Virus record (IMG/VR): IMGVR_UViG_2648501730_000002 | Location: 1-18,739 of that record | Source of the DNA: a virus | Lineage: Duplodnaviria > Heunggongvirae > Uroviricota > Caudoviricetes | Reading direction: 5' to 3' (one strand) | Length of the DNA stretch: 18,739 nucleotides | Shown: positions 12,295 through 15,200 of the stretch, piece by piece | Layout of the letters: each line of letters starts with the position of its first letter | Position numbering within the stretch: the stretch's first letter is position 1 | Made by a program: the position numbers

Positions 12295-15200
12295 TCATCC
12301 TCTCCGGATAAGGCACGGGCGTATTCTGCCAGTGTTTTCTTGTTGGTTGCTGCACCATCCTCTTCCTGCAGGCTCGCCAGCAGTGCACTGAGATCCAGCT
12401 GCCAGCGGGAAATACTGATGCGCAGCGCCGCCAGCGCATAAACGAAGCAGTCGAGCGCCTCATTGCGTCGCTTTTTGCTGTCCCACAGTATTTTTTTCCT
12501 GCCATCCACCCATTTTTCGACCTGCTCTTCAGCAGTCAGTTGCTGCGCTTCGGTAAGATCAAAAATATCCGGGTTATTCGGGAAGTGAACTGCACCGGGA
12601 AGCGGTTCATCCCCTTCCGGCGTCAGTGTGAAGCGGTTATAAATCTGCTCTTTCGCGGTATCCGTACCGATTTCGGTAAGGTAAACCCCGTTTTTGTTTC
12701 GCTTACGTGGCATGCTGGCCACCGGCTTTCCGTAGACGGATGCCCCTTTAATGGGGATCACCCGGAACAGCCCATGTTTTTTCGAGCGTTCATACACAAT
12801 GGTCGGGTCAATCCCGCCAGTATCCCAGCAGATACGGGATACCGACATTTCTGCACCATTCCGGCGGGTATAGGTTTTATTGATGGCCTCATCCACACGC
12901 AGCAGCGTCTGTTCATCGTCGTGGCGGCCCATAATAATCTGCCGGTCAATCAGCCAGCTTTCCTCACCCGGCCCCCATCCCCATACGCGCATTTCGTAGC
13001 GGTCCAGCTGGGAGTCGATACCGGCGGTCAGGTAAGCCACACGATCAGGAACGGGCGCTGAATAATACTCTTTCCGCTCTGCCATCACTTCAGCATCCGG
13101 ACGTTCGCCGATTTTCGCTTCCCACGTCTCACCGAGCGTGGTGTTCACGAAGGTTTTACGTTTTCCCGTATCCCCTTTCGTCTTCATCCAGTCTTTGACA
13201 ATCTGCACCCAGGTGGTGAACGGGCTGTACGCCGTCCAGATGTGAAAGGTCACACTGTCAGGCGGTTCAATCTCTTCACCGGATGACGAAAACCAGAGAA
13301 TGCCATCACGGGTCCAGATCCCGGTCTTTTCGCAGATATAACGGGCATCAGTAAAGTCCAGCTCCTGCTGGCGGATGACGCAGGCATTATGCTCGCAGAG
13401 ATAAAACACGCTGGAGGGGTCATCCGGCGTCCATTTGAGGCCAAACGGCGTCTCTTTGTCGCCAAATTTAAGATACTGCTCCTCCCCGCAGTGCGGGCAG
13501 GCAACATGAAAACGCATAAAATGCGGGGATTCACTGGCTGCACGCTCAATCTGGCAGGTGCCTCTCACTTTGGGCGTGGAGCCACGGATGGACTTTGGCC
13601 AGACCGAGCCTTCAATACGCTTGTCACCCAGGAACGTCGGAGAGCCTTCCTGTTCAATATCCTCATCAAAGGCAGCAAGTTCATCATAACCCGCCACATC
13701 AACCGACTTTTCACGGTAGTTTTTTGCCGCTTTACCGCCCAGGCACCAGAAGCCACGACCATTGGTGAAACGCTTCATAGTGAGCGTGTTATCCCGGTGC
13801 TTTTTGCCATACCACGGGGCCAGAGACAGCAGCGACGGAATATCGCGGATGGTAGGCTCGACGTGGGTTTTCATAAAGTTCTCGGCATCACCATCCGTCG
13901 GCAACCAGATAAGGGTGTTACGCTGCTTATGCTCTATGAAGTAAGCATAAACACCCAGCAGCATTTTTGAATAACCAACACGGGCAGACTTCACCACATT
14001 CACCTCGCGGATGTAGTCGCTGCCCATCGCATTCATGATAGCCCGCTGAAAGGGCAGTGTTTCCCAGCGCCCTTCCTGGTATGCGGATTCTTTCGGGAGA
14101 TAGTAATTGGCATCCGCCCATTCAACGGCAGTCTGTGGCTCCGGCCTGAACAGGGCTCGCAGCCCGGCGCGTACATCACGCCGCAGAATATCAATCTGAC
14201 TGTTCGATATATTCACTCAGCAACCCCGGTATCAGTTCATCCAGCGCGGCTGCTTTGTTCATGGCTTTGATAATATCCCGTTTCAGGAAATCAACATGTC
14301 GGTTTTCCAGTTCCGGAAAACGCCGCTGTACTGAGAGAGGGATCCCGTCAAGAATACTGGCAATTTCACCTGCGATCCGTGACAGCACGAAAGTACAGAA
14401 TGCGGTTTCCACCACTTCTGCGGAGTCTCTGGCATTCTTCAGCTCCTGGGCGTCAGCCTGCGCACGCGTAAGTCGATGGCGTTCGTACTCAATAGTCCCA
14501 GGCTGGAGATCTGCCTCGCTGGCAGCCCTGTAATCCTCAACCTCTTTACGGAGTTTTTCATTTTCGATATCAGCTTCCCTCTGCGCATACCACTGAATTG
14601 CCGTGGCGGTATCAAATACAGATTCAACGCCCTTACCACCTCCGGAGACGCAAGGGAGCCCCTGAGACTGCCAGCGTTCAATCGTTCGCGGATCCACGTT
14701 GAAAATTTCGGCAAGTTTCTTTTTATTAACCTTCATGAAACAGTCTCACAACAAATACAGGATCCGACATGAAAGTGCCCGAAAATGACTTTTTCAGGCG
14801 TTTTCATGTCGGACCTTTACGGATTCGATATTAGAAAAAACAAATAGTTATGTTCGAGAAGTACCGACATGATTTTCCCCGGAAAATTTTCATAAATAGC
14901 GAAAACCCGCGAGGTCGCCGCCCCGTAACGGCCCGGATCGCCGGAAAGGACCCGCGAAAACGATAATGATTATCAGTTGCAACAAAATCCAGTTTCTTCC
15001 ACCATCGCACCGGACCAGCGACCATGAGGGGACAACGCCGCGCTCCGTTAACGCGGTAAACCCCGGTGTGTATCGTTTTTGATTATCCCCGCACACTCGC
15101 GCAGAGGAGTCTCCCTGTCGGGCTGCGGTCTCTGTTAATACGGGAATACGGCGACAATACCGCGCATGGATAATAAGGTCGCTCAACACACTGGCTGTAA

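Follow-up and report, generated by a model that had tools for sequence, protein, structure and literature searches.

We found that the cos site and terminase genes of IMG/VR virus record IMGVR_UViG_2648501730_000002 (positions 1 to 18,739; the window below is this whole stretch of 18,739 nucleotides) very probably join the DNA-recognition part of phage 21 to a packaging system that is otherwise of phage lambda type. The window comes from a lambda-like Escherichia coli prophage or phage genome in reverse orientation, with the phage reading on the minus strand. The cosB site and the DNA-binding domain of the small terminase subunit Nu1 (TerS) resemble those of phage 21, whereas the rest of TerS, the large subunit gpA (TerL) and the head genes are of lambda type. 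As judged from its predicted gene products, the terminase is a lambda/21 chimera and not a 21 terminase. Its predicted specificity is that of classical phage 21, which has been characterised experimentally and is not new. An initial annotation of the window had placed a terminase specificity module different from that of lambda at 14736-14923. These limits are exact, 14923 being base 1 of the left cohesive end and 14736 the A of the Nu1 ATG. Alignment with lambda and phage 21 identifies the module as phage 21 type, and it is not identical to lambda. We use lambda-style numbering, in which bp n = 14924 - n in window coordinates. The lambda reference was PV340536, and the features are collected in Table 1.

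The window contains four copies of the 8-mer CATGTCGG, whereas 0.9 would be expected. Three of them are grouped in a stretch of 110 bp, where they correspond in position to R3, R2 and R1 of lambda. These are the repeats between cosN and Nu1 that the initial annotation had set apart from the lambda R elements, and the distinction holds: the R boxes of the window are of the CATGTCGG type, whereas those of lambda are of the CGTTTCC type. The inverted orientation of R2 had gone unmentioned. A chance origin of the repeats was rejected on account of this clustering at R-box positions. The fourth copy, at 14295-14302 in the lambda-type half of Nu1, is probably a coincidence rather than a further R box, because lambda itself has the same sequence at this place.

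The positions of R3, I1, R2 and R1 were transferred by homology from the gp1 and integration host factor (IHF) binding sites annotated in phage 21 (OL657228, M81255). The transfer is direct, because there are no gaps relative to phage 21 from bp 1 through R1. The distance from cosN to R3 is also preserved: the stretch from bp 1 to R3 aligns with both phage 21 and lambda without gaps. We found the order R3-I1-R2-R1, an R2 that is inverted relative to R3 and R1, and an IHF-like site (I1) between R3 and R2, which is the arrangement that defines a complex cosB (PMC9026076). The plus strand of I1 reads AAACAAATAGTTA, with one mismatch to the IHF consensus WATCAANNNNTTR. The box sequences are of phage 21 type as well. 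Two base pairs in R3, bp 56 and bp 59, have been reported as critical for the discrimination between lambda and 21 (PMC4669245); they are G and G in both the window and phage 21 (bp 56 being a G:C pair), but T and C in lambda. R3 differs from that of phage 21 at bp 54, where the G of 21 is an A. R1 and R2 are also part of a longer inverted repeat (14763-14785 and 14791-14813), whose 23-nt arms are 87% complementary and are separated by 5 nt. Their symmetry thus reaches beyond the 8-bp core, and by eye the same extended symmetry is seen in lambda and 21.

The Nu1 protein matches the Pfam family Phage_Nu1 (PF07471) with E = 4e-91 and 303 bits (cut-off 30), over residues 1-164 of the 164-position profile. 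It falls into two parts of different affinity, and the identities on either side of codon 72 (Table 1) bear out the earlier description of a divergent stretch of about 70 residues followed by a sequence nearly identical to that of lambda. The recognition helix (R17-S24) reads RTIERWQS, the same as in 21 gp1, including the discriminating residues 20 and 24 (E20 and S24), whereas the lambda helix is RTIQNWQE. Within residues 1-54, 48/54 are identical to chain A of PDB 7LWR, the sequence of which is that of 21 gp1 residues 1-54. Our literature search on structure 7LWR yielded no paper on it. K35 of TerS is conserved. The wing reads SGGGKGVES in the window, SKGSKGIES in 21 and RGGGKGNEV in lambda. 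On the other hand, the C-terminal part of TerS and TerL are not of 21 type, and the window therefore does not encode the 21 holoenzyme (gp1 and gp2). The gpA protein is identical to that of lambda at 529/539 residues over the part compared, and to phage 21 gp2 at 413/642.

The part of cos that precedes cosB is that of lambda. In lambda, cosQ has the sequence GGGTCCT and lies at bp -30 to -24. This cosQ, the cohesive end GGGCGGCGACCT and the whole of bp 1-47 show no difference from lambda in the alignment. Thus, the earlier statement that cosN and its immediate flanks are lambda-like stands, except for a 4-bp patch at bp -10 to -7, the sole nearby difference from lambda around cosN. In this patch (14930-14933), the window has GGCC where lambda, 21, Escherichia phage IdasGreatGrand and the Stx1a phages have ACAG. 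The variant sits between cosQ and the nick site and is also found in the JNE132847 and AR_0372 prophages of E. coli. The cosQ subsite is described as a highly conserved 7-bp site (PMC4669245). A different kind of variation exists in PhiR46_1 (PV340565), which combines lambda-type cosB and Nu1 with a cohesive end, around locus position 385, of GGGCGGAAGGCG instead of GGGCGGCGACCT.

We then examined the boundaries of the 21-like sequence. Sliding identity against lambda and 21 gives a single 21-like block, at about 14877-14540, that is flanked on each side by lambda-like sequence. Counts of differences from lambda and from the closest overall relative, made in 30-bp bins, confine the block to 14879-14520 (about 360 bp), with 7-16 differences per bin inside it and 0-4 outside. 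The swapped block therefore comprises cosB and the DNA-binding domain. Its left joint falls at bp 44-48, just past the four positions at which the cosN/I2 region of 21 differs from that of lambda, and the window is lambda-type at all four. The right joint is near codon 72 (about bp 400), at the end of the structurally defined DNA-binding domain (residues 1-68 in PDB 1J9I; 1-54 in 7LWR). The best matches to the whole window are Stx1a-converting phages, with 96% identity over 86% of its length. Their flanks are 96-97% identical to those of the window, and yet they possess a lambda-type cosB and DNA-binding domain in exactly the swapped block. A difference confined to the block is the pattern that a cassette exchange by homologous recombination predicts. 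When only the divergent block was used as the query of a sensitive DNA search, phage 21 (X02501, M81255, OL657228) was retrieved with 86.5% identity and 99% query coverage. The donor is a diverged relative of phage 21 and not 21 itself, and the arrangement probably arose through homologous recombination in conserved sequence on either side of the block (bp 44-48 and the region of codon 72). A recombinational swap had been proposed in the initial annotation. It is upheld for cosB and the Nu1 N-terminus, which form one contiguous block of about 360 bp that is lambda-type in the Stx1a relatives, but not for the gpA N-terminus, which is a separate patch.

In lambda and 21, dimers of the winged helix-turn-helix domain of TerS bind the R boxes and IHF bends the DNA at I1, while the C-terminal part of TerS binds the N-terminus of TerL, which nicks cosN at a fixed distance from R3 (PMC9026076, PMC4669245). 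For the window, we infer binding, bending and packaging discrimination from the sequence. Dimers of the 21-type winged helix-turn-helix domain would read the CATGTCGG boxes, and IHF would bend the DNA at I1 and so bring R3 close to R2. TerL, itself of lambda type, would then be held by the lambda-type C-terminus of TerS over cosN at a distance of 47 bp and would make the staggered nicks there. Because the DNA-reading part is of 21 type and the TerL-holding part is of the lambda type that matches TerL, the enzyme is expected to assemble normally and to recognise only a 21-type cosB. Such a phage would accept its own and 21-specific DNA for packaging but reject DNA specific to lambda. Lambda terminase, in turn, would not package the phage, and termination at cosQ/cosN should stay interchangeable. 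The functional criterion for 21 specificity is that 21-specific but not lambda-specific DNA is packaged, by a factor of >1000 (PMC4669245).

A functional precedent for this combination is provided by laboratory lambda-21 hybrids such as lambda-21 hy51 (Frackman, Siegele and Feiss 1985), which carry cosB of 21 and a TerS in which a 21 N-terminus is joined to a lambda C-terminus, and which are viable and 21-specific (PMC4669245, PMC9026076). The window shares with them a 21-type cosB and a chimeric TerS, which in the hybrids work with lambda TerL and lambda heads. It differs in being a natural recombinant with a joint near codon 72, whereas the left end replaced in the laboratory is described as about 600 bp. 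Phage 21 itself (M81255, X02501, OL657228; 7LWR) shares the R3-I1-R2-R1 layout at the same positions, the CATGTCGG core and the recognition helix. It is set apart by the DNA divergence of the module, three substitutions in the wing and the four cosN/I2 positions that are lambda-type in the window, as are the C-terminal part of TerS and TerL. With lambda (1J9I), the window shares the architecture, spacing, cosQ, cosN and I2, as well as near-identical TerS residues 73-181 and gpA; the R boxes, the recognition helix and TerS residues 1-72 are different. N15 and Monarch also have a lambda-like cos system in which a winged helix-turn-helix domain of TerS reads R sequences (PMC4669245). By its description, N15 is distinguished by a single R3 of unrelated sequence and a different recognition helix (PMC4669245).

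Several observations weigh against a simple assignment to the specificity of phage 21. At the DNA level, the module and phage 21 share only 86.5% identity. Three positions of the TerS wing are different from 21, with two of the three changes matching lambda, and R1 differs from that of 21 at three bases outside the core; therefore, binding strength or fine specificity could differ. In addition, the specificity is read from the sequence. It is conceivable, though unlikely, that the 21-type helix together with the partly lambda-like wing (GGGKG) amounts to a sub-specificity, with altered strength, IHF dependence or cross-reactivity compared to classical 21, which requires IHF for plaque formation. 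If true, this would partition packaging among the co-resident lambdoid prophages of Shiga toxin-producing E. coli (STEC) beyond the simple lambda/21 dichotomy.

A further reading, which we also consider unlikely, is that the module is 21-related but has drifted to a distinct third packaging specificity that is not cross-compatible with 21. The 13.5% DNA divergence across the module would be consistent with such a drift, and so would the six differences from 21 among the first 54 TerS residues, three of which are in the wing, a part thought to contact the minor groove (PMC9026076). The changes at bp 54 of R3 and at three flanking bases of R1 point in the same direction, and related modules with clearly altered boxes and helices do exist, for example that of PhiR5_1 (see below). 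However, the recognition helix is that of 21 without any change, each of the three boxes has the unaltered 8-bp R core of 21, and the 21 state is found at both discriminating base pairs and both discriminating residues. K35 is retained, and the change from G to A at bp 54 moves R3 closer to the consensus of the R2 and R1 of 21 itself. These features argue against a third specificity.

We then investigated the distribution of the module. At least 80% of the 338-bp module is present in 1174/5426 complete E. coli genomes, and 568 genome records contain it at an identity of at least 95%. The whole 1-kb arrangement (cos, the chimeric Nu1 and the start of gpA) occurs in 558 E. coli genomes among the 5426 complete genomes searched. 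The arrangement is already known and is an ordinary mosaic, widespread among hundreds of E. coli genomes. A literature search on natural lambda/21 chimeric TerS in O157 prophages found no prior description addressing cosB type. The closest 1-kb match (99.8%) is a prophage of the STEC-like E. coli JNE132847, which has a SASA esterase gene upstream; we take this gene to be nanS-p. The same chimera is found in Escherichia phage IdasGreatGrand (PP925829), a deposited complete genome with an E. coli host, where the module is 98% and TerS 99% identical. In the IdasGreatGrand and JNE132847 records, the gene is labelled only 'terminase small subunit' and the cos subsites are unannotated. DA61218 and other strains, on the other hand, possess complete 21-type gp1 and gp2.

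Two of the related phages have further peculiarities. In IdasGreatGrand, the annotation of the locus at 3906-5831 divides TerL between a 144-nt 'hypothetical protein' and a TerL that begins at 4086. This phage has a lambda-like GTG start at 3906 and the same N-terminal residues as the window, and the split is probably an annotation artefact. PhiR5_1 (PV340545; locus 600-770, Nu1 766-1314) possesses R boxes that are related to those of 21 but distinct (CATGTCAG, GACATC and CATGTCGT) and a recognition helix with the sequence RTIDRWQT, and the C-terminus of its TerS and the N-terminus of its TerL correspond to those of neither lambda nor 21. We regard PhiR5_1 as a candidate for yet another variant of packaging specificity.

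The gpA protein differs from that of lambda at residues 8, 9, 10, 13, 14 and 21 and at only four positions in the 518 residues that follow, in agreement with the initial annotation, which had noted that the first residues differ and that the rest is nearly identical to lambda. The differences near the N-terminus form a small mosaic patch. Phage 21 was rejected as its source, with a sliding identity to 21 of 35-47% in this region. The patch lies in what we take to be the TerS-binding N-terminus of TerL, and the TerS C-terminus here is lambda-type. The patch might belong to the same co-evolving module, with the TerL N-terminus co-varying with the DNA-binding domain of TerS. It usually accompanies the 21-type module: the two occur together in the window, JNE132847, AR_0372 and IdasGreatGrand, and the patch is found in 487 E. 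coli records at an identity of at least 95%, a number of similar size to the 568 records for the module. However, about 320 bp of lambda-identical sequence separates the two blocks. In E. coli CH4811, the same 21-type module is accompanied by a gpA N-terminus of lambda type; module and patch are therefore not obligatorily linked. Furthermore, PhiR46_1 combines a lambda-type cosB with an intermediate form of the patch, and the TerL-binding C-terminus of TerS is of lambda type. We therefore rejected the gpA differences as a part of the module, and regard their membership in it as quite improbable.

On the minus strand, the gene order is a lysis cassette (P21-type holin, lysozyme, Rz), cos, Nu1, gpA, head genes and tail genes, and Nu1, gpA and the downstream head and tail open reading frames are all full-length. 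STEC genomes contain many defective lambdoid prophages (PMC2669165), but the idea that the module is a decayed remnant in such a prophage, its differences from lambda being neutral drift and not a functional specificity module, is hardly credible, as decay predicts frameshifts, irregular box spacing or scattered substitutions, none of which is seen, whereas the divergence is confined to a sharply bounded block, the three boxes share the same new core at preserved spacing, the open reading frames are intact, and the same module is carried by the deposited phage IdasGreatGrand and by the 568 genome records mentioned above.

Table 1. Features of the cos site and terminase genes in the window (bp, lambda-style numbering)
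Feature	Position	Strand	Description
cosQ (GGGTCCT), packaging-termination subsite	14947..14953	-	Unchanged in alignments with lambda, 21, IdasGreatGrand and Stx1a phages
12-base cohesive end GGGCGGCGACCT (cosN nicking region)	14912..14923	-	Same in lambda and 21; base 1 = 14923
bp 13-47, right part of cosN and I2 spacer	14877..14911	-	0 differences from lambda, 4 from phage 21
cosB R3 (bp 50-65)	14859..14874	-	AATCATGTCGGTACTT; 15/16 identical to phage 21 R3
I1, IHF-like site between R3 and R2	14838..14850	-	Homologous to the annotated phage 21 I1
cosB R2 (bp 107-122)	14802..14817	+	Inverted relative to R3 and R1; AAGGTCCGACATGAAA, reverse complement TTTCATGTCGGACCTT; 16/16 identical to 21 R2
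cosB R1 (bp 150-166)	14758..14774	-	TTTCATGTCGGATCCTG; core identical to 21 R1, 3 differences 3' of the core
Nu1 (TerS)	14736-14191	-	181 aa; A of ATG = 14736
Nu1 codons 1-72, 21-type winged helix-turn-helix DNA-binding domain	14521..14736	-	62/72 identical to 21 gp1, 43/72 to lambda
Nu1 codons 73-181 and stop, lambda-type oligomerisation and gpA-binding part	14191..14520	-	107/109 identical to lambda, 54/109 to 21
gpA (TerL)	14216-12291	-	641 aa; GTG start as in lambda; lambda-type
Small mosaic patch, gpA codons 8-21 (I8, D9, I10, R13, D14, A21)	14150..14196	-	14 nt and 6 aa differences from lambda; not 21-like

In the lysis cassette, we found a 213-aa open reading frame (17370-18011, minus strand) without a Pfam match, with the P21-type holin (18335-18015) on one side and the lysozyme (16917-16384) on the other. 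The equivalent position in the JNE132847 prophage carries an annotated hypothetical protein. This open reading frame may be a moron within the lysis cassette.

The lambda and 21 specificities are a textbook case of a protein domain and a DNA site that co-vary, studied since the 1980s. The window adds a natural example, in which a 21-type cosB and DNA-binding domain are joined to a lambda-type terminase at a domain boundary. Annotation pipelines record only a 'terminase small subunit' and no cos subsites, and thus the type of specificity cannot be seen in the records. For the defective prophage Sp4, Asadulghani et al. inferred packaging by the terminase of a co-resident prophage, because the cos sequences of the two are nearly identical (PMC2669165). 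STEC strains contain many lambdoid prophages and, in view of the Sp4 case, the cosB type of a prophage should help decide which terminase mobilises it.

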